Translations under genes and position numbers: made by a program | Shown: piece by piece, positions 27,817 through 42,426 of the stretch | Layout: each line of letters opens with the position of its first letter | How positions within the stretch are numbered: position 1 is the first letter of the stretch | Notes under the pieces: model-generated | Told to the model about the DNA's origin: nothing | Database searches by the model: none | Seen by the model: only the letters and a program-made list of their open reading frames with translations | Sequence record: PZ544694.1 | Source of the DNA: a phage | Length of the DNA stretch: 56,700 nt | Strand: one strand, 5' to 3'

Positions 27817-28350
27817 ATGGATCATAAGTACAAGGTTTCGGACAGGAATACCGTCGCCCGAGTAGTGGGCCGTCATCGCCAATGGTGCGACGCATACGTT
27901 GAGGTAAAACGTATCGTTCGTGAAATGTCCGAAAAAGGGATAACCGATCTGGAAGTTGACGCGATGCCGATCCACGCGCACCTAAACCGGATTGCTGGTT
28001 TCAACTCATTTTTTGCCAACACTCAAAACGAATGGTGGCTAAGATTTAGACCATTTGAAGCCTACCCACAAGATAACGGGAAGACGCTAATTAAGTACCG
28101 CGACTCCCACCCGTGTAACATCTGGCGAAAAGTAGAAAAGATGGAATTCGACCGAGAAGATTTAGAACGAAGAATAAGTCGTATCGAACAAATATTACAA
28201 GGACAGCCGGAAACAATCGCATACGATAGAAAAGTATTTCGAATTCGTAGAACACAAGAATTATCTCAAACCGGCATGTCAAACCGAAAAGCGAGAAAAA
28301 TCGCATGGGAGGAAGCCGGTAGAGAATTCCCGGGAGAAGACCATGTTTGA
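27817..28350 (+). CDS. hypothetical protein
   Basis: 177 aa frame-1 ORF. Confidence 0.45.
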   Translation: MDHKYKVSDRNTVARVVGRHRQWCDAYVEVKRIVREMSEKGITDLEVDAMPIHAHLNRIAGFNSFFANTQNEWWLRFRPFEAYPQDNGKTLIKYRDSHPCNIWRKVEKMEFDREDLERRISRIEQILQGQPETIAYDRKVFRIRRTQELSQTGMSNRKARKIAWEEAGREFPGEDHV

Positions 28351-28602
28351 ATGTTTGATGAAATACGGAGAATAAAACGGAAATATGAAATGTTGCCTCC
28401 CGGAGATAACATACCTCTGTATGGCGATTTCATTGAGTTTAAGGACGAATTTAACGGAGCAACATATATTGGGGAGGTGTTAGATCACCATTTCAGTTCA
28501 ACACCTCACGATCAAATTTGGAATGTCTTCGTAGACGGCGTGACCATATCTGCGAAACAATCTGAGATAACAAGAGTATACCGACGCAAACGGAGAAAAT
28601 AG
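28351..28602 (+). CDS. hypothetical protein
   Basis: 83 aa; first 8 nt duplicate last 8 nt of upstream ORF. Confidence 0.35.
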   Translation: MFDEIRRIKRKYEMLPPGDNIPLYGDFIEFKDEFNGATYIGEVLDHHFSSTPHDQIWNVFVDGVTISAKQSEITRVYRRKRRK

Positions 28603-29466
28603 ATGAAAGACCTAACAAAACCTTTAGTAGAAATCGATATCGACGTTAGAACGGATTACCTACCTCACGGTGTTTTATCCGTTGATATCAAAACCGAGGA
28701 AATATCTCACGAACTAAAATCGTTACTAGCCGATACATTTGAAGCCATGGTAGTTCGTTTGATTTCTTCGGAGAGAAAATACCAAAGAGGGAACTCTTAC
28801 CAGAACGAAGAACTAGCGCAAAGCGGTGAACTCGCATTCCGGATCGCCGACCGGCTTAAAAATTTCCAAGATATTGACGCCATGAATTTGATTATGTTTT
28901 CCATGTACCATCAGGCGTATTCTGGACAACAAATTCATCTAATGGATAGTTGTATTAAAGATTTCCATCGCGGGGTGGTAGACGCGTATAACTTCATTGA
29001 TTCTACTTGCCCTCCCGGTTGTGCTGAGGAAGCGTTCCGAACACTGCTTATGAGCGAGTTAGTCGACACTACCATGAAAGAACTCGGCAAAGGCGATAAA
29101 ACCTCATACAAGATGTTAGGTGGCGATACGGCCAAGTTATCCGTTAACCCCCCTAAGTCCCTAAAAGCATTTGCGGATCAACTAGGCGACGAGGAGCTTT
29201 ACATCTATAACATTCTAGGCATGAATTTTGTGATCCCATGGTGGGGCGATACCGTAGTAGCGAATAAGGAAAAACAACTACTCGTGTTCCCGGGTGTACC
29301 ATATGTTGATCGAGAGACCGATAGATGGCGTTCACCAGACTGTGAAGATTTCCAAAAAGACGGTCTCGTTATCGGCACAATAGATGTCTCGAAAGAAAGA
29401 GAATATCTCATTGATGGTTTTATTCTATCTCTGTCCGCATTCAACCGCAAACCGCTAGAGGGCTAA
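28603..29466 (+). CDS. hypothetical protein
   Basis: 287 aa frame-1 ORF. Confidence 0.5.
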   Translation: MKDLTKPLVEIDIDVRTDYLPHGVLSVDIKTEEISHELKSLLADTFEAMVVRLISSERKYQRGNSYQNEELAQSGELAFRIADRLKNFQDIDAMNLIMFSMYHQAYSGQQIHLMDSCIKDFHRGVVDAYNFIDSTCPPGCAEEAFRTLLMSELVDTTMKELGKGDKTSYKMLGGDTAKLSVNPPKSLKAFADQLGDEELYIYNILGMNFVIPWWGDTVVANKEKQLLVFPGVPYVDRETDRWRSPDCEDFQKDGLVIGTIDVSKEREYLIDGFILSLSAFNRKPLEG

Positions 29467-29931
29467 ATGAAATTAGTATACATAGCTGGCCCATACCGCG
29501 CAGACACCAAAGAGGGCGTGGCTGAAAATATCCGTAAGGCACAAGTAATCGGGCTATCTCTAACCACCAACGGACATACATTAGGGGTATTCCCCGTGAT
29601 CCCTCACATGAATACGGCGCACTTTGAGACCCACACTTTAACCGTATCACAAAAATTCAGCGCTTTTATTGAGCCGGTGCCAGATGAATACTGGCTACAA
29701 GGAACAATGGCATTGATGGAAAAATGCGATGCGGTTTTATTGACGCACCCACAAGCCGGCATAACAAGCAAGGGAACGCGGGCGGAGGTTATGCGCGCTA
29801 TTGAGTTGGGTATTCCTGTTTATGACCACATAAACGGTCTACTATCTGACCTTAGAGACGAATCAACGCCTCTACGAAGTATTAATGTTTTGAATGACAA
29901 GCGAGAATTTCTCGGGGCGGTTGATGAGTGA
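29467..29931 (+). CDS. DUF1937/DUF4406-like protein (nucleoside 2-deoxyribosyltransferase-like fold)
   Basis: 154 aa; N-terminal LVYIAGPYRAD and mid-protein CDAVLL...G pattern. Confidence 0.35.
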   Translation: MKLVYIAGPYRADTKEGVAENIRKAQVIGLSLTTNGHTLGVFPVIPHMNTAHFETHTLTVSQKFSAFIEPVPDEYWLQGTMALMEKCDAVLLTHPQAGITSKGTRAEVMRAIELGIPVYDHINGLLSDLRDESTPLRSINVLNDKREFLGAVDE

Positions 29932-30402: not shown

Positions 30403-31107
30403 ATGGCGAATTTAAAGCCTAAAGGTATCAGACAAAATAACCCGGGTAACTTGGAGTGGGGATCTCCTTGGCAGGGGCTAGTACCGAAAGCGGAGAGAAC
30501 GTCTCCTCGCTTTTGTGAATTCGTAAATCCGGTTTATGGTATTCGTGCGATCGCAGTAACGTTAATCACGTATTACGATAAGCGCAAATCAAAGAACGGC
30601 TCTCGCATCGACTCCGCGCGTGAAATCGTTGAGCGTTGGGCGCCGGGGTCGGAGAAAGGGAATAATACCAACGTATACGCTAAAAACTTAGCAGACCTAC
30701 TAGGCGTTGGCCCGGACGACGAAGTTATCGATATGCACGACTACGACCAGTTGTTTTTATTGGTGTCAGGCATCATCGGTACAGAAAACGGCTTCAATGG
30801 GCCACTCAAAGGCAAAACGGTAAACACTTGGTATTCTGACGAGACTATCGAAGAAGCCCTCCGTATGGCCGGGGTGACTAAGAAACCGAAAGTCGTTAAT
30901 TCTACTGCAACCGTAGCAGCCGGCACCGCAGCACTAGGCGTCGCTCAGTTGGTTGAGGTCGTCCAGCCGGTCAAGGAGGCGGTACACAATGCCTCGGGAG
31001 ACCTTTCATCTGGCGACTACGCTAGAATCTTCCTCGGCGTCGCCACCGTCGGGATCGGGATTTACCTCGGCTATGTCCGCTACCGTAAATTCAAATTGGG
31101 GCAGTGA
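30403..31107 (+). CDS. hypothetical protein, possible peptidoglycan hydrolase (endolysin candidate) with C-terminal hydrophobic segments
   Basis: 234 aa; N-terminal GIRQNNPGNLEWG; two C-terminal hydrophobic stretches; sits among small membrane proteins. Confidence 0.25.
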   Translation: MANLKPKGIRQNNPGNLEWGSPWQGLVPKAERTSPRFCEFVNPVYGIRAIAVTLITYYDKRKSKNGSRIDSAREIVERWAPGSEKGNNTNVYAKNLADLLGVGPDDEVIDMHDYDQLFLLVSGIIGTENGFNGPLKGKTVNTWYSDETIEEALRMAGVTKKPKVVNSTATVAAGTAALGVAQLVEVVQPVKEAVHNASGDLSSGDYARIFLGVATVGIGIYLGYVRYRKFKLGQ

Positions 31108-31422
31108 ATGGCGGGTAGAGATGGAGGTACGGGAGGCGTTCGCATTGACTTGGCGATCAATATCCCGACTATCCTTTCGCTAATAGCAGCGTTGTGTAGC
31201 GGTATAATGTGGGTTAATAACCAGTTTAGCAATGTTAGAAACGATGTTTTGTTGGTCACGGCTGACGTTAGAGTCCTAGAACAACGAACAACGCAAGCCG
31301 AGCGGGAAATCGCCGATATAAAACATAATACCGCACAACAAATAAACCAGTTTCGAGGTGAAGTTCGCGAAGACCTTAGAGACATTAAAACTAGCGTTCA
31401 AAAACTCGCAGATAAAAAATAG
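31108..31422 (+). CDS. membrane protein with N-terminal TM and coiled coil (i-spanin-like candidate)
   Basis: 104 aa; TM INIPTILSLIAALCSGIMWV then heptad-like charged helix. Confidence 0.3.
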   Translation: MAGRDGGTGGVRIDLAINIPTILSLIAALCSGIMWVNNQFSNVRNDVLLVTADVRVLEQRTTQAEREIADIKHNTAQQINQFRGEVREDLRDIKTSVQKLADKK

Positions 31423-33408
31423 ATGGCAGTCAACGCAAGGAACACTTCGCGGGCTGTCGTTTATCAGATCTTGCCTGACTTTAGGGCAAGGTCTACCCAC
31501 CGGAATGTTCTATATCAGGTCTCCGCGAAACTGCGTTTTCGGTCGCAGCACCGAAACGTGGTCTACCAAATACCGCCATTTCGTGCTAGGTCGGTCGTTT
31601 CTAATATAGTATATAGTACCGATTCAACTGCAAGAACGGTAATTACTGTCCCACAAGCGCTAAACCAAGTTGTCTATAACACGTCGTACCAGTTTGAGAT
31701 TTCAAACAATATCATTGGTGGGGTAATAAATACCGCGACCTATTCATGGGTTGAAGCGTTGCCGATCTCTAAACTTGATGTGAAGTCTTTTACGCAACTG
31801 GTGGTCGTTGGTACGGAATACGACACTACGTCCATGAAGTTTATCGGGCAAAACGTCCACCTCGTAAACCAAGGGCTACCGCAACCCCGCCCGGTCGATA
31901 CATGGTCGAACACGGAGATGGGTTCCGAGGTTATGCTCGTTTGTCAGTCTTTGGATATCGAATATATCCCGAGATCCGGGGTTGACTCTCCTAGCGTTGT
32001 ATCGTTGGTTTCCTACTCATCTCCGATAAAATGGGAGACAAGACCGGCTGACGTCGGTACGGTAACACATTTAGCATCGGTTCCGACGGATTTGTTCGGC
32101 CTCCCTAACTCTTTCACATCTTCCGGGAGTGTCGTTCAATTGTCGTCGTACCCGTCCACACCTCCGGCACGAGTAGGGGTTGAAAACGTCCCTCAGATTG
32201 TCAGTTTAGCCTCGATACCGGTAGGCGATGATCCGACCGTCGGAGTGGAGAAATCGTCTCAGGTTTTCACTCAAGCGATTCTGTCATCGGATTATGTATA
32301 TCCGCAATCCGATACTGATGTCGGCCAAGTTTTATTGTCACAAGTTGAGTCGGTCATTGATGAACTACCGATTTCCCCGGAGGACGTTAGTTCCGTTGTG
32401 TCCTTATCGGCGATTGGGGTCGACGCAACATGGAGTTGGTCAGATATATCTTCACCGTCAGTTAATATTTTGGCCGTACAAGATAGCCCGCAACCTCCGC
32501 TAGAGTCGTACTTCGTTTTAAATGCGGTAGGGTCTGCTACGGTGGCGATGTTATTAGAATCGGACTTCGGGCCGGCACACAAAGACAGTTACACCGAAAC
32601 GTATTCCGTACCGATCCTATCGTTGATGACTGCGCCTAAACGGTTTTACCCGCCTCTTGATAACGTGGTAGAACTTGAGAAAGGAAACCATGTTACTCAA
32701 TACGTTACGTCTACTGCGATGAAACGTGACGACGGTATGCCGATATCTACGGAAGATGTCGCCTCACTATCCATTGTTTCCGGGATAAAATCTCCGATGC
32801 CAACTCCGGACGAAGTTGCGAGGAAAGGCGACTTTATTTCGGGCCTATCGCAACACACCATGGTTACGAGTTCGTTCCCGTCTACGGAAGAACCTCAGAG
32901 TTATGTTGAAACGGGTAGTTTAGCTAAAAATATCGCGGTAACGGCATCGTACCCTGATATTCGTCTACCGATGACAGTTGGCCAAACGGACTTAGTAGCA
33001 TTTAATATCGCTAACTCGGTTGACTACCCGCCGGTGAAATCGTTTTTAATGTATGATTTCGCGGGATTAGTAACACAAAATATCGCGTGTAAGGCTAACT
33101 ATTTGCCCGCAAATACGCTAAACTCCTTATCGTTGACGACACAAACTTCGGCTAACGTTGCGTTCTCGGCCAGATACCCTGATAAAAGTACGGTTTATTC
33201 GCGAATTAATTCCGCTCAGGTTTCATCTTCGCTGGCAACGGTAGCTGAGTACCCGGATAAAGACTCAGTTCTTTCAGACATAAAGTCTACGTCCGTGTAT
33301 CAAAATGTTGTGCGCGTCGATTCTTCGTTATATCACATGCCACACCCACCGCAGAGACATCGCGTTAGGATCGTGTGTAAGATGATATATGGATATAAGA
33401 ACCGATAA
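31423..33408 (+). CDS. putative tail fiber / structural protein with internal repeats
   Basis: 661 aa; N-terminal RNVLYQV / RNVVYQI / SNIVYS repeats; recurring (S/E/R/D)YP(D/S/Q) motifs; Ser/Val-rich. Confidence 0.45.
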   Translation: MAVNARNTSRAVVYQILPDFRARSTHRNVLYQVSAKLRFRSQHRNVVYQIPPFRARSVVSNIVYSTDSTARTVITVPQALNQVVYNTSYQFEISNNIIGGVINTATYSWVEALPISKLDVKSFTQLVVVGTEYDTTSMKFIGQNVHLVNQGLPQPRPVDTWSNTEMGSEVMLVCQSLDIEYIPRSGVDSPSVVSLVSYSSPIKWETRPADVGTVTHLASVPTDLFGLPNSFTSSGSVVQLSSYPSTPPARVGVENVPQIVSLASIPVGDDPTVGVEKSSQVFTQAILSSDYVYPQSDTDVGQVLLSQVESVIDELPISPEDVSSVVSLSAIGVDATWSWSDISSPSVNILAVQDSPQPPLESYFVLNAVGSATVAMLLESDFGPAHKDSYTETYSVPILSLMTAPKRFYPPLDNVVELEKGNHVTQYVTSTAMKRDDGMPISTEDVASLSIVSGIKSPMPTPDEVARKGDFISGLSQHTMVTSSFPSTEEPQSYVETGSLAKNIAVTASYPDIRLPMTVGQTDLVAFNIANSVDYPPVKSFLMYDFAGLVTQNIACKANYLPANTLNSLSLTTQTSANVAFSARYPDKSTVYSRINSAQVSSSLATVAEYPDKDSVLSDIKSTSVYQNVVRVDSSLYHMPHPPQRHRVRIVCKMIYGYKNR

Positions 33409-34986
33409 ATGTTGACGGGAGGTTATAGCGATGAAAGTTGGTTGCCTGACGATTCTTACGCTCCTAATGGCTCTCTAGACGTATCTAAGATCCCGCTATT
33501 CACGGTAGATAGTCGTGGCTTATTTAATGGCGGTAATACTGGGGCTATGTTGTATACTTTTAGAGCTTCCGGCCTCTATGCTCCCGTATCCGCACCGTGG
33601 TCGCCTAGCTACCCTTTCGGGTATCCGTTCAATAGTCCGAGTATTCGACCGGAGTTATCCCCGAGCGGTTTTTCTATTGTACCTTGCCCGACTAGACCCG
33701 GAAGAAAGCGCTTCATGTTCCCCGGAAAAAAGATGGTCGGTAGACCCCTTACTTCTACAAGTAGCAGTGATAACTGGTCGGGGTCTCCTAACTGCTTCTC
33801 AATTCGCTATCGCATTCCTAGACCGTCGGTATCGGCTCCGGCAGGGCGTCAAACTAGCATATCTTTTGTAGCTAGATTTAATAGACGTACGGATAAGACC
33901 ACTAGACTAGCTTGGTATTTTTCTGTCGGATACCCGTCGATTAAGGTTCGACCGGGATACCAAACTAACTGGAGGAATTATGGGCTATCCAGTTTATGTC
34001 CGGGGTTCTTCGCTAGTTATATAATTTTTGGGAGTTCTAAACGTATAAATCTAGGGTCAGGAACACCGGGAGATACGGAGACTTGCACTTATTCAGATGG
34101 TCTTCCGTGGGTGTGCTTAAGACCTAACAACGAATTAGCTACGGATATACCCAACCCGACGGTACCGGGGAGAGACGGTCATTTTTTCAAATTTGAGTTC
34201 GACCGAGATTACCATATAGAAATTTTGTTGAGGATAAACTCCGCTACAAACAATTATGTAACTCGACCCTCCGTGAAAGTATTCATCGATGGGGAACCCG
34301 TCAGCAGTTGGAACGTTTCTGGAGCCAATGACGAGTTCTGGATTCCGCCCGAGGATACGTCAAATTTAGCTACTTCGGATCGGGTAAACTCAGAGAACTT
34401 TCTTACAGGGTTGCAGTTTAATTTTCAGATGAATCATAAGTACAACGTGTCAGTTTACCCGACGTATCACTATCCGGAGATGGCGGAGGAGTCCGGCCCG
34501 GTATTGATTAGTGATATCGTGGTAGGGGAGTCCAGTGCTTCCGACGGAGAAGTTGTCTTCGGGCCGTCAACTCGCGTATGGGGAGACGCTCCTAACTCGG
34601 ATATCGAGACATCATTCAAACGGCCACAAAGTTTCGATTCTAATGCTAGCGTGGTTGGTGCCCCCATGGGGTCGAATGTTGTTGATGAGGGGGCCGAGTT
34701 ATCCGGTGGGGCTGGAGACCGAGACATGTATAAAACCGATGGTAGTTCTATGCCGGATTTCGCCGGGAATATCTTAGGAGTTCAAGTAAAATCGATAGTT
34801 CGTGCCCCGTCCGCTGACGGCGAGGTCGTATCGCTACTAGGAGAAAGAGAATTGGGGTCTACCGAACTAAAGGCTTCGAATGGCGGGCGCTATTCGTCCG
34901 TAGCTCACACGATTACTTATACAACCCCCACCTCTCCTGAAGAAATATCCAATACTGCTTACGGTATATCAGTGAAAGAGGTATAA
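33409..34986 (+). CDS. putative tail fiber / receptor-binding-like protein
   Basis: 525 aa; central DRDYHIEILLRINSATNNYVTRPSVKVFIDGEPV resembles the WYYFEI...V(W/F)INN motif of the three downstream paralogs. Confidence 0.4.
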   Translation: MLTGGYSDESWLPDDSYAPNGSLDVSKIPLFTVDSRGLFNGGNTGAMLYTFRASGLYAPVSAPWSPSYPFGYPFNSPSIRPELSPSGFSIVPCPTRPGRKRFMFPGKKMVGRPLTSTSSSDNWSGSPNCFSIRYRIPRPSVSAPAGRQTSISFVARFNRRTDKTTRLAWYFSVGYPSIKVRPGYQTNWRNYGLSSLCPGFFASYIIFGSSKRINLGSGTPGDTETCTYSDGLPWVCLRPNNELATDIPNPTVPGRDGHFFKFEFDRDYHIEILLRINSATNNYVTRPSVKVFIDGEPVSSWNVSGANDEFWIPPEDTSNLATSDRVNSENFLTGLQFNFQMNHKYNVSVYPTYHYPEMAEESGPVLISDIVVGESSASDGEVVFGPSTRVWGDAPNSDIETSFKRPQSFDSNASVVGAPMGSNVVDEGAELSGGAGDRDMYKTDGSSMPDFAGNILGVQVKSIVRAPSADGEVVSLLGERELGSTELKASNGGRYSSVAHTITYTTPTSPEEISNTAYGISVKEV

Positions 34987-36003
34987 ATGTTAAAACATCA
35001 AGACGGTTTCGACCACTACGCAGATATCGGCAAGAAAGGTTCCGTAGTCGAGCCGTACTTAAAAGCAGCCGGGTATGATATCCGAAATGCTACTGACGAT
35101 ACGTTCCAGATTGACCTAGGTCGTCGTGACGGCGCTAAGAGCCTTAAATTTACCGTAGAACGTAACTCCGCAACCAATGCGTCGCTATCATGGGGGTTCA
35201 CTCCGGCCGGAAACTACGCGTGTTTCGGTTTCGCGATGAAAGCCAATGGTTCTCGTATGCGAGTATGTCGGGTTGAGAACTTGGTCGACGTGGAGTGGGA
35301 TAGCGAAGACGGTAAGCTAGAAATTGATGGCCAAAAAGGGGTAAACCCGCTGATCCTTAATGCGTGGTATTTTTTCGAGATAGAACTTGATAAGTCCGCT
35401 AAGAAAGTAACCGTATGGGTTAATAACGAAAAGCAAATCGAGGCGACCCTTACTACTTCTTGGCCTGAAAAACTCGTTCTGGTATGGGGGCAAGTGGGTA
35501 CAGCGCCCAATGCGGGTATCCAGTACCTAGATGATTTTTACGCTATGGACGATTCGGGGTCGGTAAACACTTCCCGCCTAGGGCCGATTGAGGTTGCTAC
35601 CCGCGCTCCTACTTCTGATGTTACGACCGAATGGGAGATCGTTAACGGCACTAACGAAAATCACTACCAAGTTGCCTCCCAACTGGAGCCGGGGAGACCT
35701 AACGCACCGTATTTACAGTCTAACAAGTCGGGAGCTAAAGACATTTTCCGTTCTAATACGATCCTACCGACTAACAACAAGGTTTTCGGCGTGTCGGTGA
35801 TTGCGTATGCCCGTAAAGGGGACTTAGACGACCGCAAACTCGGTATGGTGATCCAGACTGACGGGGGTTCTGAGAAAGAAGTCCAAGTACCGTTGACCGA
35901 AGACTATAAATACTACCAAGTTACCCACGAACAAACTCCGGGTAATACCGACTGGAATAAAGGCGCTGTCGAAGCATTGCAGTTCGGCATCGTGACTCGA
36001 TAG
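34987..36003 (+). CDS. putative receptor-binding / tail fiber protein, paralog 1
   Basis: 338 aa; shares WYFFEIELDK, LGPIEVATRAPTSDVTTEW, YLQSNKSGAKDIF with ORFs 36004 and 36988. Confidence 0.5.
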   Translation: MLKHQDGFDHYADIGKKGSVVEPYLKAAGYDIRNATDDTFQIDLGRRDGAKSLKFTVERNSATNASLSWGFTPAGNYACFGFAMKANGSRMRVCRVENLVDVEWDSEDGKLEIDGQKGVNPLILNAWYFFEIELDKSAKKVTVWVNNEKQIEATLTTSWPEKLVLVWGQVGTAPNAGIQYLDDFYAMDDSGSVNTSRLGPIEVATRAPTSDVTTEWEIVNGTNENHYQVASQLEPGRPNAPYLQSNKSGAKDIFRSNTILPTNNKVFGVSVIAYARKGDLDDRKLGMVIQTDGGSEKEVQVPLTEDYKYYQVTHEQTPGNTDWNKGAVEALQFGIVTR

Positions 36004-36987
36004 ATGATGCAATTTATGGACGGTTTCGACCAGCTAAAAGATATGCCGTCGGATAAGATGGTAAATTTACTCAACAACTCGGGGTACAACGCAGTACCGC
36101 CGATCCGTATTGCGGAGGGACGTAATACAGAAACCCGATGCTTATACCTAGGTGATGTAAACGAGAACGCAGCAAGCCCGGCAACACTGTCTCGACTTTT
36201 TAACTCCGAGACTAACCGTGTGGTTATCGGTTTTGCGTATTGTGCGGACAAAGTGCGGGACGATATTATCCGTATTCCCGGTTTTGGGGTGCTCGCTTGG
36301 AACCGCGACAATGGTAAAGTCTCCTTGGCCGGTGTTACGGGTCAAGCTATCTTGCTCCTAGGTATCTGGTACTATTTCGAGATCGTCATCAACAAAGAAA
36401 CAAATACTTTCCAAGTTTTTATTAATAACGGTGCGGACTTAGCTGGACAACTACCGGATAGTGTTCGTTTCATGACAGACTACAAATGCGAATGGCCGGG
36501 CGGTTCTGGCGGTAAAAAATTAGATGATATCGTTTTTATCGATGCGCAAGCCGGCAAATACGTTGACCGAGTTGGCCCGATTGAAATACTCACCCGAATG
36601 CCGACGGTGGACGTGGTGAGCGAATGGTCGCCATCGAAAGGCGATAACCACTGGTCTCTTGTCAGTAATCGCCCTCCGAAAGAGGACGAATATATTCAGT
36701 CTAACGTCTCCGGCGCGATGGATACTTTCAAAAGTGAAATCCCGCTCGACGCTAAAGGCGACATCTTGGCCGTGAGTGTCACCGCGATCAACCGTAAATC
36801 TGACGTAGATAATAGACAACTCGGGTTGGTGGTTGGCGAGAAAGACAAACAGTTGGAAAAGGTAGATGAAAAACTTACCTTGACTGACAAAATAAGTTAT
36901 GCTGTATTCGAAAATTCTCCGCTCGGCGCTAATTGGGATCGCGATAATATCCCTGAAACTCCGTTCGGTGTAGTTATTAGACCATAA
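36004..36987 (+). CDS. putative receptor-binding / tail fiber protein, paralog 2
   Basis: 327 aa; WYYFEIVINK, VGPIEILTRMPTVDVVSEW, YIQSNVSGAMDTF. Confidence 0.5.
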   Translation: MMQFMDGFDQLKDMPSDKMVNLLNNSGYNAVPPIRIAEGRNTETRCLYLGDVNENAASPATLSRLFNSETNRVVIGFAYCADKVRDDIIRIPGFGVLAWNRDNGKVSLAGVTGQAILLLGIWYYFEIVINKETNTFQVFINNGADLAGQLPDSVRFMTDYKCEWPGGSGGKKLDDIVFIDAQAGKYVDRVGPIEILTRMPTVDVVSEWSPSKGDNHWSLVSNRPPKEDEYIQSNVSGAMDTFKSEIPLDAKGDILAVSVTAINRKSDVDNRQLGLVVGEKDKQLEKVDEKLTLTDKISYAVFENSPLGANWDRDNIPETPFGVVIRP

Positions 36988-37908
36988 ATGTTTTTCTTCG
37001 AGGGGTTCGAACAGTTCGCCTTCGATGGGGATTCCCCGGCTTTCATGCGTAGAGCCGGGTATACCGTTTCGGGGTCTTTCGGCTTCGGCGCAGGACGTAA
37101 GAACGGCGCAAGCGTCCTACTCGGCCGAGGTCGAATATCCCGAGATTTCCCATCTGATACCGGCAATTTTACCGTAGGTTTCGCGTTCAATATGACCACG
37201 AGAGGAAATCTCGTAGGCATCTCAGGCGGGGATAGTACGCTTAAAGTTGGTGTAGACCAGACCACAGGGTTATTACAGTCCGAGGGAGAGTCAGGTTACG
37301 TTATCCCATTGCGTAACAACTGGTACTATCTAGAAGTGGAAGTAAACAAAGACGCAAAGACGGCCGACGTCTATATCAATGGTAAAAAAGACATTACGGT
37401 TTCGATACCAGATGGCGTAGCGACGGCAGACACGCTCACAATAACATTGCGGGACTTCGACGAGTCGGATTTTGCGGACATTCGCTTCGATGACTTGTAT
37501 TATGCCGACACTACGAGAGTCGGGCCTATCACCGTCACTACTCGCGTTCCGACGAAAGACGTATCGAAAGATTGGGGTGTTTCCGGTGGGGAATCTCACC
37601 ATGAGGTCGTAGCTCCCGCACTACCGAACTTAGTTGACCGGTTCATCTATACGGGGACGAATGGTGCTACGGATTCTTTCACCTCGGAAACCGTGCTATC
37701 AGAGGAGACAGAAGTAAAAGGTGTTTCGGTGATAACACTCCTCCGAAAAGCCACCGTAGATCCAGTTAGCGTAGATGTGTTCACAAACGAGCTAGTTAAA
37801 AACGAAGCTACGTTACCTCGTGATTGGGAGTACCGCTACTCAGAACTTGGAGTGCTCCCGGAGCACGTAATACCGGACTCAACTTTCGGAATAACTCTAA
37901 AAGCGTAA
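36988..37908 (+). CDS. putative receptor-binding / tail fiber protein, paralog 3
   Basis: 306 aa; WYYLEVEVNK, VGPITVTTRVPTKDVSKDW, FIYTGTNGATDSF. Confidence 0.5.
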   Translation: MFFFEGFEQFAFDGDSPAFMRRAGYTVSGSFGFGAGRKNGASVLLGRGRISRDFPSDTGNFTVGFAFNMTTRGNLVGISGGDSTLKVGVDQTTGLLQSEGESGYVIPLRNNWYYLEVEVNKDAKTADVYINGKKDITVSIPDGVATADTLTITLRDFDESDFADIRFDDLYYADTTRVGPITVTTRVPTKDVSKDWGVSGGESHHEVVAPALPNLVDRFIYTGTNGATDSFTSETVLSEETEVKGVSVITLLRKATVDPVSVDVFTNELVKNEATLPRDWEYRYSELGVLPEHVIPDSTFGITLKA

Positions 37909-38646
37909 ATGAAAATTGCCCCTAACATGGGGCTTTCCTATGGTTGGGTGAGAGGCGAGGATTTTTGGGGTGGCCCAATGAACGAGACGCTAACCACCTT
38001 AGATACTGTTACGTTTCTACGCCTACAATCTATCACGTTTAGTGCGCCACCGGCTGACGCTAAAAACGGCGACACCTATTTTATCTATAAAAACCCGACT
38101 GGCCCTTGGGTTGGCCAAGAAAGAAAACTGGCCGTATTGATCGACGGCGTGTGGCAATTCATCGAACCCAAACGAGGTTGGCGAGCATTCTTAGACCCGA
38201 CCAGTGAGTTTATCTGGTGGGACGGGGAGACGTGGCGTATTGAGAATACCGGAGTTGACCCGATCAACCCTAACCCATCTCCCGATGTTGTACCTATGGC
38301 GTTTGATGTATCCGCGACTATTTCGGAGAAGATGTATCCATCGGAAGTGCTCGTACACTTGCCAATTATCGACAATATGTACCTACCGGCTAACATGGCA
38401 CAATCTCAATTCGACGCCCGTAGTGCTTTTCTCGATAAAGCTAAGTTCACTGTGCAGAGAAATAACCAAACTGTCGGCACATTCACTGTCGATCGGGGGC
38501 AATATAACGCCACTTTCGTGACGTCTGGTAGCGTTGCCGTGAGATTTTTCAAAGGTGACAGGCTGACAATCTTAGCTCCGGTTGATACAATCGACTCAGC
38601 CGTTAACTTCGGCTTTATTATTAGATTAATGATTCAGGGGGCTTAA
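37909..38646 (+). CDS. DUF2793-like tail fiber-associated protein
   Basis: 245 aa; GDTYFIYKNPTGPWVGQ...IDGVWQFIEPKRGWRAF...WWDGETW aromatic/Gly pattern. Confidence 0.4.
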   Translation: MKIAPNMGLSYGWVRGEDFWGGPMNETLTTLDTVTFLRLQSITFSAPPADAKNGDTYFIYKNPTGPWVGQERKLAVLIDGVWQFIEPKRGWRAFLDPTSEFIWWDGETWRIENTGVDPINPNPSPDVVPMAFDVSATISEKMYPSEVLVHLPIIDNMYLPANMAQSQFDARSAFLDKAKFTVQRNNQTVGTFTVDRGQYNATFVTSGSVAVRFFKGDRLTILAPVDTIDSAVNFGFIIRLMIQGA

Positions 38647-41600
38647 ATGGGGCTACACATGGGGATCGGCCGTGGCCCTATTGATGAATTGATGGAAATC
38701 GAGGTCGGCGGAAGAACCGCTTGGCGTGGTTCCGTTAAAGAGTCCTCGTTCTTTCGGATACGGGCTGAAAATCTTTTCGGGGGTAAGAAAGCGGAGGGAG
38801 GCATTGAGGGTGGTTTCGAACTCTACATGGGCGATAAGGATCAGGTCGTTAGCGACAAACTTAAATCCATGTTGGGCGGTGGGAGCCAACCGGAGTTTCG
38901 CGGAGTAGCTACCGGCTATTTCGATGGTTTAGTGTCGGCCATGAACCCATACCCGAAAGCGTGGCGATTTAAAATACGTCGCATCTTAAAAGGTTGGGAC
39001 GGTGGGGTGTGGTATCCGGAAAAAGCGGTCATAGAACTTACCGGCCACGATGACGAGGGGAAAGAGTATCCCATCAAGGCGATGAACCCGGCTCACGTTA
39101 TTTACGAGTGTATGACAAACCGAGATTGGGGCCGAGGTATCTCTCGTGACCTACTGTTTGACTCGGAGTTCCGAAAGGTGGCCGATACGTTGTTCGAGGA
39201 GGGGTTCGGGATCTGTATTGCGTGGAGACGCCAAGACACCCTAGAGTCTTTTATCCAGAATATACTTAACCACATTTCAGGCGTGTTATACGTCGATAAG
39301 TTTACCGGTACTTTCAAACTCAAGTTACTTCGTAATGACTACGATGCGGATAACTTGCCGGTGTACGGTTTTGAGAGCGGGTTACTACAAATCGAGGAAG
39401 CGACTAACGGCGCAATCCATGGTCTGATGAATGAGTGTGTCGTTAAATGGTTCAACCCGATCGTCGGTAAAGAGAGTCAAGTTCGAGCACAGAACCTAGC
39501 CCTGATTCAGACTTCCGGCGCCATCAAAAGCGACACATTCACGTATGAGGGGGTGCCAACCGCAAAACTGGCCACTATCATAGCAGAAAGAGACTTACGT
39601 GTTGCGTCTACTAACGTCCGCCGGTTCACCCTAGTTTGTGACCGTCGAGCATGGCGAGTACAACCGGGAGACGTTTTGAAGATTTCCGACCCAAAGACAC
39701 GCGGACTTGAGAGCGTAATCGTTCGTGTAGCGGACACAGAGGAGAGTAAACAATCCGATGGTCAGATACGATTATCTTGCGTACAAGACACGTTCTCGTT
39801 CGACCTGAACACGTTTACTGGTGTTCAAGACCCGTCTTTCCCTAAACCGAACCTAAACCCGGTTCCGGCCAGACGTTTAGTTTATGAGGCGACATACGCA
39901 GAATTGTCGTCCCTATTCCCACTAGGAGAGTTTGAGGCCATCAAGCCGTCTTTCGGGTATTTGCGGGCACAGGCGGAAAAAGGCTCACCGGTAACGATGG
40001 CGTTCGAGATGCACGTCCAAAACCCGACCACTGGAAAGTATGAGAAAACAGGTGCGGGGGATTTCACTGCGCTATTCGAATTACCGGTTGACCTTGGATA
40101 TTTAGACCGCTATATCCGAATGAAAGATCCGGTAGATGAAGACTTGATTGAAGTCGGGGACGTTTTTTACGTCAACCAAGAAATAATCATGATCCAGTCT
40201 ATCGAGGAAGACGGGTTAGTCGAAATACGTCGAGGCGTGTACGACACCGTACCTCACCAACACCCCGCTGGCTCCGTAGTGTGGGATATGGTTCAAGGTG
40301 GCGGGCTTGACCTGACAACCCGACAAGCGGGAGAAACCTTATCGGTGAAGATACTCCCATGGACGCTATCGGGTGGGGTTCTCGACGAGTCTAACGTGTC
40401 CGAAGATGAACTGACTTTCAATTACCGATTCTACCGCCCATACGCTCCGGGTAAAGTAGAACTCACCTCAGTGGAAAGCACGGAACCGAACCCTTGGTTT
40501 AATGGCCATGTTTTACGAGCGGACGTCGGAGAGGCCGAAGTGCCTGACGCCTTGACGATAACGTGGGCGCACCGAGATAGACCGATGCAACAAGACAAGC
40601 CTATTTATCATGAGCAAGATAGTATCGGGCCGGAGCCGGGAACGACATACCGAATTAGTATCCTAAACGCTAAGGGTGAAGTAATCCGCAGAGAAAACGG
40701 GATTACCGGCACACAGTTTGTCTACACTTACGGCCAAGCGAGCCTAGATTTGAACGTGGAAGCGTCAGCCATAGATCCGGTTGCTGGGTACTTGAGATTA
40801 GAGTCTATGCGCGACGGGTTCGAATCGTGGCAAAACTACTTAATACCGATCACCGTTTTCAAGAAACCGCCTCAAATGGCGTATGTTAGTTTCTTAAACC
40901 AATCTGTCGCTCAGGTGTCCGATAAAATCGACCCCGAAGATAAAGACGGAGAGACGGCCGTAGACGCAAAAGCCATGGTTAGTTTTGTCAACCAATCCGT
41001 AGCACAGGAGAGCGAAGATCTATCTTCCGGTGGCGGGGGCCTACCTGATGGCGTGAATGTTAGCTATGTGCGACAACCGGTTTCGCAACAAGGCAAATTA
41101 GTTCCTATCGTAGATAGCCAACTGTTTGAGTTCCCTTACTTAATGTTGCTACGCCATGGGTTCGAACCGTCCGCCTCACAATTCTTCGCTACGGTAGCTA
41201 GACCGTCAGACCGTGTAACCGACGGGTACGATTTGTTCGAGAAAGAGAAGAACGATACAGAGTACGTGAACCAAGGGGCGCAACCGTGGACGCCGTGGGG
41301 GATTCTGTCTAAGGCAATCTCATATCTGGATAATGAGATAATCCTCGATGCTACGTCGGATTCTGACGGGGTTCCTACTGAGGACGCGATGCCGGGCGAC
41401 GTGATTTTCGTCGGAGCCGAAGCGATGGTGATCCGGGGCATCGATGGTAAACGTATTACGGTTGGCCGTGGTTGTGTTGATACAATCCCCGCACTTCATG
41501 GGAAAGGTCAAGTTGTGTGGTTTGTCGACAAACAAATAGCTTCCGGGCAACGTAAATATCACGACGGCCAGACTTGCGTAGTTGCCGTAAGGCCTCATTC

Positions 41601-42426
41601 TCTCGCAGCAGAAATCCAGCCTAAAGACGTGGTAAACAAACAACTGGAAGTGAAACTACGCGCGGATAGACCATATCCACCGGGGTTCTTGCTCGGCAAC
41701 GGTGAGCACTTTTTCAAAGGGTGGGACGCACTGGCCGATAACTTTGACTACTATGACCCGCAAGGCAAAGACTTAGTGATGACGTGGGCGCACCGTAACC
41801 GAGTTCGTCAAGGGGAAACCGTGTTAGACCATCTTGATGTGGGACAACAACGGCCAAGCGACGTAATGTATCGAGTGTGGATCGGGAAACGATATACTCC
41901 TAGATACAGCAATCGCACAGTTACTATCACCATGGGGACGTATTATACTCGCGACGCAGGAATGACGATCAAGGCCGAAGACTTACACGCGTTCGGCAGA
42001 CGAGTAGGGATCTTGACGGAATCCACCGGCTACGTCTATGTTTCGATCACGGTATCCGCTGTCGATGAAAACGAGCTTAGTAGCTGGCAAGGATATAATA
42101 CTCAGTGTAAAGTACCCTCAATTCCGGCCAAGCGAGATGTTGACCCCAATCCGGGAAGACCTGACCCGGGAACTGGCGGTGGCGAAACTGGCGGTGGCGG
42201 AACTGGCGGTGGTACGAACCCCGGCAATCCAGATCCGGGTCAGCCTGATAGACCGAACCCCGACCCCGACCCGGGCAACCCTGATCCAGAACCTAATCCG
42301 GGCAACCCTGACCCTGATCCGGTCGAGCCTCCGCCACCGTTGGTTGTTGCCGGTTGGTCAAACAAGTGGGATCATGATTGGGCGGAACGACTACCAGACC
42401 AAGACGTCAAAGAGGATACTGAATAA
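38647..42426 (+). CDS. host specificity / central tail fiber protein (lambda gpJ-like) with Gly/Pro-rich C-terminal tract
   Basis: 1259 aa; region GISRDLLFDSEF...GFGICIAWRRQDTLESFIQNI colinear with lambda J (GMGKRLGAADVDKW...); C-terminal PNPGRPDPGTGGGETGGGG... at about 42145-42345. Confidence 0.6.
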   Translation: MGLHMGIGRGPIDELMEIEVGGRTAWRGSVKESSFFRIRAENLFGGKKAEGGIEGGFELYMGDKDQVVSDKLKSMLGGGSQPEFRGVATGYFDGLVSAMNPYPKAWRFKIRRILKGWDGGVWYPEKAVIELTGHDDEGKEYPIKAMNPAHVIYECMTNRDWGRGISRDLLFDSEFRKVADTLFEEGFGICIAWRRQDTLESFIQNILNHISGVLYVDKFTGTFKLKLLRNDYDADNLPVYGFESGLLQIEEATNGAIHGLMNECVVKWFNPIVGKESQVRAQNLALIQTSGAIKSDTFTYEGVPTAKLATIIAERDLRVASTNVRRFTLVCDRRAWRVQPGDVLKISDPKTRGLESVIVRVADTEESKQSDGQIRLSCVQDTFSFDLNTFTGVQDPSFPKPNLNPVPARRLVYEATYAELSSLFPLGEFEAIKPSFGYLRAQAEKGSPVTMAFEMHVQNPTTGKYEKTGAGDFTALFELPVDLGYLDRYIRMKDPVDEDLIEVGDVFYVNQEIIMIQSIEEDGLVEIRRGVYDTVPHQHPAGSVVWDMVQGGGLDLTTRQAGETLSVKILPWTLSGGVLDESNVSEDELTFNYRFYRPYAPGKVELTSVESTEPNPWFNGHVLRADVGEAEVPDALTITWAHRDRPMQQDKPIYHEQDSIGPEPGTTYRISILNAKGEVIRRENGITGTQFVYTYGQASLDLNVEASAIDPVAGYLRLESMRDGFESWQNYLIPITVFKKPPQMAYVSFLNQSVAQVSDKIDPEDKDGETAVDAKAMVSFVNQSVAQESEDLSSGGGGLPDGVNVSYVRQPVSQQGKLVPIVDSQLFEFPYLMLLRHGFEPSASQFFATVARPSDRVTDGYDLFEKEKNDTEYVNQGAQPWTPWGILSKAISYLDNEIILDATSDSDGVPTEDAMPGDVIFVGAEAMVIRGIDGKRITVGRGCVDTIPALHGKGQVVWFVDKQIASGQRKYHDGQTCVVAVRPHSLAAEIQPKDVVNKQLEVKLRADRPYPPGFLLGNGEHFFKGWDALADNFDYYDPQGKDLVMTWAHRNRVRQGETVLDHLDVGQQRPSDVMYRVWIGKRYTPRYSNRTVTITMGTYYTRDAGMTIKAEDLHAFGRRVGILTESTGYVYVSITVSAVDENELSSWQGYNTQCKVPSIPAKRDVDPNPGRPDPGTGGGETGGGGTGGGTNPGNPDPGQPDRPNPDPDPGNPDPEPNPGNPDPDPVEPPPPLVVAGWSNKWDHDWAERLPDQDVKEDTE

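Follow-up and report, generated by a model that had tools for sequence, protein, structure and literature searches.

A conserved repeat protein encoded last in the tail module of chi-like phages, a probable low-copy component of the distal tail or long-fibre apparatus

The 661-amino-acid (aa) protein described here is encoded at positions 31423-33408 of phage sequence record PZ544694.1, a DNA stretch of 56,700 nucleotides (nt) that is referred to as the window over its full length. With moderate confidence, the protein is regarded as a segmented shaft of repeats that serves, at low copy number, as a structural component in the distal tail or in the long-fibre apparatus. Its presence in the virion is taken from a homolog, and we infer its oligomeric state, its elongated shape and its location in the fibre. 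The protein is a member of PHROG 7226, a conserved and previously uncharacterised family with a hitherto undescribed repeat unit. An initial annotation, made from the letters of the window alone, had proposed a putative fibre or tail protein. This proposal is plausible and receives indirect support from the position of the gene in the tail module, from the detection of its homolog gp49 in virions of phage JS26 and from the absence of the surrounding gene block in Burkholderia phage AH2. The gene is summarised as follows:

31423..33408, + strand: target gene, 661 aa, member of the PHROG 7226 / Chi gene 36 / YSD1_35 / JS26 gp49 family, defined by homology, a Shine-Dalgarno sequence and N-terminal conservation

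The assignment to the family is based on several independent types of search. The match to PHROG 7226, for which the function is given as unknown, covers aa 2-656 with an E-value of 2.4e-259. By tblastn, the family was found in 153 phage records, in which it is always annotated as hypothetical, including Chi gene 36 and YSD1_35 (both with E ~1e-26) as well as genes of Enc34, Redjac, JC01, Saba and Kokobel1. An exhaustive search with a hidden Markov model (HMM) retrieved about 50 representatives, nearly all with a length of 640-705 aa, and a word-index homolog search gave 7 clusters, which were identical whether the single sequence or a 45-sequence profile was used. The alignment of the target to JS26 gp49 with hhalign was full-length, with a probability of 100% and an E-value of 2e-91. 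Chi gene 36, YSD1_35 and JS26 gp49 share with the target the length class of 640-710 aa, the repeat units, the C-terminal motif and the terminal position in the tail module, whereas sequence identity is only 27-28% to the Chivirus proteins and ~17-25% to JS26 gp49. In relatives from Providencia phages, the N-terminus is extended by ~46 residues that carry additional N-x-V-Y units. A search of viral contigs for related loci recovered only E21, Kokobel1 and Saba. Neither the target (E<=0.1) nor any of the 45 family members (E<=0.01) had a match in Pfam, NCBIfam had none for the target or the family, and a profile search of the PDB with the target yielded no relative, including the chains of the Chi structure 8VJH. 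Klebsiella pneumoniae phages were absent from the tblastn matches listed, and the absence of the family from Yonseivirus (PIN1/PIN2) was not rigorously tested.

One further candidate, P0052, a 1536-aa protein on a 229-kb metagenomic contig (L012, 8001-12611), was rejected as a family member since it matches only the 25-aa repeat region described below, and weakly so, in an unrelated genomic context. Its match to this region of the family profile has an E-value of 3.6e-5, and it carries a weak F5/F8 type C (discoidin) hint. The 25-aa repeat unit may occur outside Casjensviridae.

The open reading frame (ORF) is complete, with an ATG start and 661 codons plus stop. Its closest match is Escherichia phage E21 (MN604053.1; Casjensviridae, Lavrentievavirus) with 100% identity, and 26 further records, mostly of Proteus mirabilis phages, have 93-96% identity. 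The host labels of such records are implausibly diverse, as near-identical Lavrentievavirus genomes are on record under the names Enterococcus phage AS-M1_NWU, Staphylococcus phage SVV09-A, Pseudomonas phage E21 and several Salmonella phages SD-xx. For phages that are 93-96% identical, this suggests contamination or mislabelling.

The annotated start codon of this gene varies between records. It lies 45 codons late in E21 and 49 codons late in pPM_01, while ASh-2020a is annotated with the long start; the stretch concerned corresponds to window positions 31423-31557. With the late starts, two to three conserved repeats at the N-terminus are lost. The long start is preceded in the natural sequence by a strong Shine-Dalgarno sequence, GAAAGAGG, 8 nt upstream of the ATG, and the ATG lies 3 nt past the stop codon of the upstream gene, which couples the target to that neighbour. 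Homologs with identities as low as 40% retain N28/Y31, N45/Y48 and N61/Y64 without exception, and the N-terminus of JS26 gp49 carries the same type of motif (FVIY, FIIY). Because of the Shine-Dalgarno spacing, the N-terminal conservation and the motif in JS26 gp49, the 661-aa ORF is supported as having the right start, and the annotated starts of E21 and pPM_01 need correcting. The N-terminal repeats therefore sit within the translated sequence.

Nearly the whole protein is organised in repeats, and these are more extensive than first noted and significant by shuffle and lag statistics. The following segments were delimited:

31435..31689, + strand: N-terminal array of 17-aa units in 3-5 copies (aa 5-89), defined by motif counts, lag 17 and conservation
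32074..32469, + strand: 22-aa array of six units (aa ~218-349), defined by lag 22 and a unit HMM, with the family consensus LALQRSDEPLPVSPTRVAQVVS
32470..32832, + strand: central conserved segment with weak periodicity (aa 350-470), defined by family conservation
32833..33357, + strand: 25-aa array of seven exact units (aa 471-645), defined by lag 25 and a unit HMM, with the family consensus FVSQVAEQVASVATYPDKDPPQSPV
33358..33405, + strand: conserved basic C-terminal motif RHRVRIVCKMIYGYKNR, defined by family conservation and the alignment to JS26 gp49

The three N-terminal repeats of the RNV(L/V)YQ(V/I) type that had been reported were recovered as R[NA]V[LV]YQ[VI] at aa 10, 27 and 44, with an exact spacing of 17 aa, and at least three matches were reached in 0 of 5000 composition-preserving shuffles. 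These three clear copies (R-N/A-V-V/L-Y-Q-I/V) are followed by two degenerate ones, NIVY at aa 61 and VVY at aa 83. The lag-17 autocorrelation over aa 1-100 has a z-score of 5.1, compared to a 95th percentile of 3.2 and a maximum of 5.2 in shuffled sequences. This signal is significant though not overwhelming, and it is backed by the invariant N and Y positions in the homologs. The hydrophobic runs of these motifs (RNVVYQI in the target, FVIY and FIIY in JS26) look strand-like.

Of the at least six YP repeats proposed for the rest of the protein, only 4 are found with the strict pattern [SERD]YP[DSQ]. The relaxed pattern YP[DSQP] matches 7 times (aa 243, 293, 409, 510, 535, 585 and 610), compared to a shuffle mean of 0.67, and none of 5000 shuffles reached 7. 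An exact 25-aa period underlies these motifs, as seen from FP485, YP510, YP535, YLP560, YP585, YP610 and Y637. The z-score of lag 25 is 10.0 for the target alone, above the shuffle maximum of 5.4, and 21 for the 45-member family profile, on which a period of 22 in aa 231-360 reaches a z-score of 17. Weaker traces of the 22-aa period, marked by conserved serines, extend back to about aa 82. Unit HMMs, which were built from fixed-register stacks, found 5-11 copies of the 25-aa unit per family member versus 0.11 in shuffled sequences, and a mean of 8.1 copies of the 22-aa unit versus 0.16. The two unit profiles align on a shared P-x-S...V-x-Q-V core with a score of 10.7, versus 4.1 +/- 0.8 (maximum 6.3) for column-shuffled controls, so that the 22- and 25-aa units are related to each other. 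Between about aa 94 and aa 618, nearly invariant serines follow one another at the distance of one unit. Most of the protein is therefore tiled by essentially one unit type. The most conserved motifs outside the repeats, SPQPPLESYFVLNAVGS, ESDFGPAHKDSYTE, RFYPPLDNV and KGNHV, all lie in the central segment. The C-terminal motif is the only segment for which the AlphaFold confidence approaches 60, and in most relatives the protein ends in ...IVY.

The richness in serine and valine that had been noted for parts of the protein applies to its overall composition (Ser 13.6%, Val 12.6%). In window positions 32001-34000, which cover part of the target and the adjacent 525-aa gene, the GC skew (-0.006) and the AT skew (-0.069) are lower than elsewhere in the window, where they are positive; this dip probably reflects Ser/Val/Thr-rich codon content.

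The evidence for a virion protein comes from phage JS26. In purified virions, JS26 gp49 was detected by liquid chromatography-tandem mass spectrometry with 68 unique peptides, 1241 peptide-spectrum matches (PSM) and 87.9% coverage (PMC8754663 Table S6). The products of its five neighbours, gp50-54, were all present in the virions too (PMC8754663). Per residue, ~1.8 PSM were obtained for gp49 and 2.2 for the J-like gp56, compared to 5-6 for the paralogs gp52-54, while the tail tube reached 37 and the capsid protein 76, and gp52-54 are the most abundant members of the block (PMC8754663). These values indicate that gp49 is a low-copy virion component, with PSM counts being semi-quantitative only.

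The genomic position of the target points to the tail module as well. Compared to the natural E21 record, the window keeps the order of blocks, but each gene-sized block has been turned to the plus strand and abutted to the next, and the intergenic spacers have mostly been removed. As a result, tail and lysis genes appear in the window (e.g. 27817-29931 versus 30403-31107) in an order opposite to that in which they are naturally transcribed. Inferring promoters, operons or neighbours from the window alone would be wrong, and the arguments from context therefore rest on the natural records of E21, ASh-2020a and pPM_01. There, the tape measure gene is followed by genes for proteins of 562 and 271 aa, two small genes and the genes for a 1259-aa J-like protein and a 245-aa protein. 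These are followed by genes for proteins of 306, 327 and 338 aa, a 525/546-aa protein and the 661-aa target, and then by an Rz-like spanin, an endolysin and an 84-aa protein. The target is the last gene of the tail module, directly before the spanin and endolysin genes, in E21, ASh-2020a, pPM_01, YSD1, JS26 and a metagenomic locus (L011). This terminal position is thus common to Lavrentievavirus, Chivirus (YSD1), Dunedinvirus (JS26) and a metagenomic relative with ~20% identity. The entire six-gene block is missing from AH2, which is a distant relative in the family and whose J-like protein is short (789 aa).

The initial annotation took the periodicity as typical of beta-helical or fibrous tail proteins and as a substrate on which recombination could vary the length. 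On the present evidence, it is improbable that the target is a beta-helical (tailspike-like) fibre protein, or one of classical beta structure, with repeats that drive recombinational length variation. This reading would agree with the period of 22-25 residues, which is the coil length of right-handed parallel beta-helices, with the composition rich in Ser, Val and Thr, and with short strands at a spacing of ~22 residues that DSSP assigned to aa 237-353 of a low-confidence AlphaFold model. However, neither the target nor any of the 45 family members matched a beta-helix, pectate-lyase or PbH1 profile in Pfam, and curated fibre repeats or domains (Phage_fiber, Phage_fiber_2, Collar etc.) were not matched in Pfam or NCBIfam. 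AlphaFold2, which is usually able to recover beta-helices, gave no confident fold for the monomer, with a mean predicted local distance difference test (pLDDT) score of 25.3 with 8 aligned sequences and 33.4 with 45. The hydrophobic columns of the 25-aa unit are 21, 24/25, 3/4 and 7 (V, V/A, V/A and A), 3-4 residues apart, and the hydrophobic moment at 100 degrees is 1.05 for the 25-aa unit and 0.76 for the 22-aa unit, versus 0.1-0.4 at 160-180 degrees in the same windows. This periodicity is of the alpha type, which speaks against a beta-helix and in favour of units that each consist of one short amphipathic helix and a Y-P-D...P-Q-S loop. At the DNA level, Tandem Repeats Finder reported nothing relevant in the target gene, units compared in register are only 32-45% identical, and no exact in-register run exceeds 11 nt. 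Only short in-register remnants, at spacings of 75 and 225 nt, are left in the 25-aa array. DNA iterons or tandem repeats were therefore rejected as an explanation. The gene is exactly 1986 nt long in 26 of 28 close relatives, and no variation in repeat number was seen among them; of the two exceptions, the one that was examined, SD-13_S19, has a 9-aa deletion of one loop (aa 223-231) and not a change in units. Recombinational length variation thus finds no basis in these data, and the repeats are ancient, diverged and kept by selection on the protein.

Two further explanations concern the role of the protein and not its fold. It is rather unlikely that it belongs to the virion outside the long fibre, be it as a peripheral tail-tip or baseplate accessory, as a secondary-receptor adhesin for the cell-surface step or as a protein ejected with the DNA. 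Such a role would be compatible with the low copy number in JS26 virions and with the conserved basic C-terminus. In PMC12264135, immunogold labelling is cited as having put the long fibre of YSD1 on YSD1_29, not on YSD1_35. In addition, Chi needs AcrABZ-TolC, a secondary receptor to which no phage ligand has been assigned (PMC9266447). However, the cryo-electron microscopy (cryo-EM) models of the Chi and YSD1 tail tips contain no related chain, although a rigidly bound accessory would probably have been built, and a polymer of ~20 repeat units would be less typical for a compact protein than for an elongated one. Moreover, the allelic variability typical of receptor-binding parts is found in the upstream 525-aa gene, not in the target. 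A non-structural late protein that merely lies between tail and lysis genes, for example a chaperone for the assembly of fibres or a factor involved with lysis, is very improbable. The target does adjoin the lysis cassette, and the last genes of fibre operons often encode chaperones (T4 gp38/gp57-type, lambda Tfa). Against this, JS26 gp49 was found at the coverage given above in virions purified with caesium chloride, in which the neighbouring endolysin was represented by 3 peptides, and a length of 661 aa with a repeat architecture is unlike known chaperones.

The favoured reading, a segmented shaft in the distal tail or long-fibre apparatus, can be outlined as a model. The conserved block encodes the J-like hub and fibre protein, the 245-aa protein, the three paralogs, the 525-aa protein and, as the last product, the 661-aa protein. 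In the latter, the 3-5 strand-like 17-aa motifs at the N-terminus would probably form a docking end, followed by ~15-20 related 22/25-aa units, each probably consisting of a short amphipathic helix and a loop containing Pro and Ser, and the conserved basic C-terminal strand would close the protein. It would assemble, probably as a trimer, into an elongated, flexible and segmented shaft. This shaft would form part of the long, thin and curly fibre or a tail-tip accessory, in a region that is unresolved in the structures of chi-like virions. An obligate oligomeric fibre would at least be consistent with the failure of AlphaFold on the monomer.

Comparison with known systems places this model in context. 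YSD1_29 and its Chi equivalent BH2P (8VJH chain A) resemble the target family in belonging to the same module, in their similarly low virion copy (JS26 gp56 versus gp49) and in having parts that cryo-EM did not resolve; the C-terminal part of YSD1_29/BH2P was too flexible for this (PMC12264135). They are reported to form the long flagellum-binding fibre. However, there is no sequence similarity between the 661-aa and the 1259-aa protein in an all-against-all BLASTP, and the 1259-aa gene is the ortholog of YSD1_29. The long tail fibre of T4 (gp34-gp35-gp36-gp37) serves only as a working analogy since it is likewise encoded by consecutive genes after the hub gene and consists of low-copy virion proteins, some with internal repeats. 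It differs in that no homology and no match to Phage_fiber or other fibre repeats of Pfam exist. A segmented trimeric coiled coil of the T4 fibritin type would be similar in its short segments, its hydrophobic residues (mostly Val and Ala in the target) 3-4 positions apart and its regular intervening loops, and such segmentation in the target would give a thin, flexible fibre. In contrast to fibritin, the putative helical segments of the target would comprise only ~12-14 residues (~2 heptads), and no Fibritin_C or foldon match was found in Pfam among the 45 family members. Tailspikes with right-handed parallel beta-helices and leucine-rich-repeat solenoids share the repeat length of 22-25 residues with the target, but not their family profiles (45 members searched), the LxxLxLxxN signature or a solenoid in the AlphaFold model, and the periodicity of the target is of the alpha type.

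The fibre of chi-type phages, which wraps around the flagellum, is single, curly and 220 nm long (PMC4342425). For Chi, its composition is experimentally unsettled, and no fibre structure is available (PMC10399903). A more far-reaching idea, which we hold as tentative and somewhat doubtful, is that this fibre is a hetero-multiprotein assembly of the conserved six-gene block instead of a homo-oligomer of the J-like protein alone, with the target family contributing a long shaft of 22/25-residue helix-plus-loop units. If true, this would constitute a new fibre architecture in which many hinges provide flexibility. Chi-like phages are textbook flagellotropic phages and therapy candidates against Salmonella, Proteus, Serratia and E. 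coli. The six consecutive proteins that are encoded after the J-like gene and conserved, the largest of which belongs to the target family, provide candidates for the missing fibre mass and for host-range engineering.

Several points weigh against a shaft in the fibre. Besides the immunogold result for YSD1_29, the fibre has been suggested to be a polymer of a single protein species (PMC10811340). Virion presence is carried over from JS26 gp49, a homolog with ~17-25% identity, and not from virions of E21 or other Lavrentievavirus, and the low copy number depends on the semi-quantitative counts mentioned above. AH2 is a single example of absence. The low-confidence AlphaFold strands in aa 237-353 point away from a helical unit, and the failure of the prediction is equally expected from a shallow alignment alone.

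The genes that accompany the target in the tail module and at the start of the lysis cassette are located in the window as follows:

31108..31422, + strand: Rz-like spanin, start of the lysis cassette, immediate natural downstream neighbour of the target
33409..34986, + strand: 525-aa gene, immediate natural upstream neighbour of the target with a 3-nt gap
34987-36003, 36004-36987 and 36988-37908, + strand: three paralogous genes of 338, 327 and 306 aa (BLASTP E 5e-46 to 1e-27)
37909..38646, + strand: 245-aa gene, annotated as tail fiber protein, equivalent of YSD1_30, with no PDB relative
38647..42426, + strand: 1259-aa J-like hub and central-fibre protein, ortholog of Chi 8VJH chain A (E=0) and YSD1_29

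Among the module proteins searched against the PDB, only the 1259-aa protein has a solved relative (8VJH_A). No relative in any solved structure, including Chi 8VJH, was found for the 245-, 338-, 525- and 661-aa proteins, and these are therefore unplaced in solved virions.

The 525-aa gene occurs in two allelic types whose proteins are ~52% identical (E21 and P2-71 versus most Proteus phages), whereas the flanking genes are 93-99% identical, and no other tail gene lacks a megablast match in ASh-2020a or pPM_01. As a mosaic, variable cassette, it is a likely determinant of host specificity. In the E21 record, this gene is annotated 21 codons longer than the ORF in the window. The tandem triplication of the 338-, 327- and 306-aa genes is kept in YSD1, JS26 and the distant metagenomic relative, in which one copy of the paralogs has a faint Pfam hint of Laminin_G_3 (lectin-like). 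The JS26 homolog of the product of 30403-31107 was detected in virions with 3 peptides only and is probably a contaminant.

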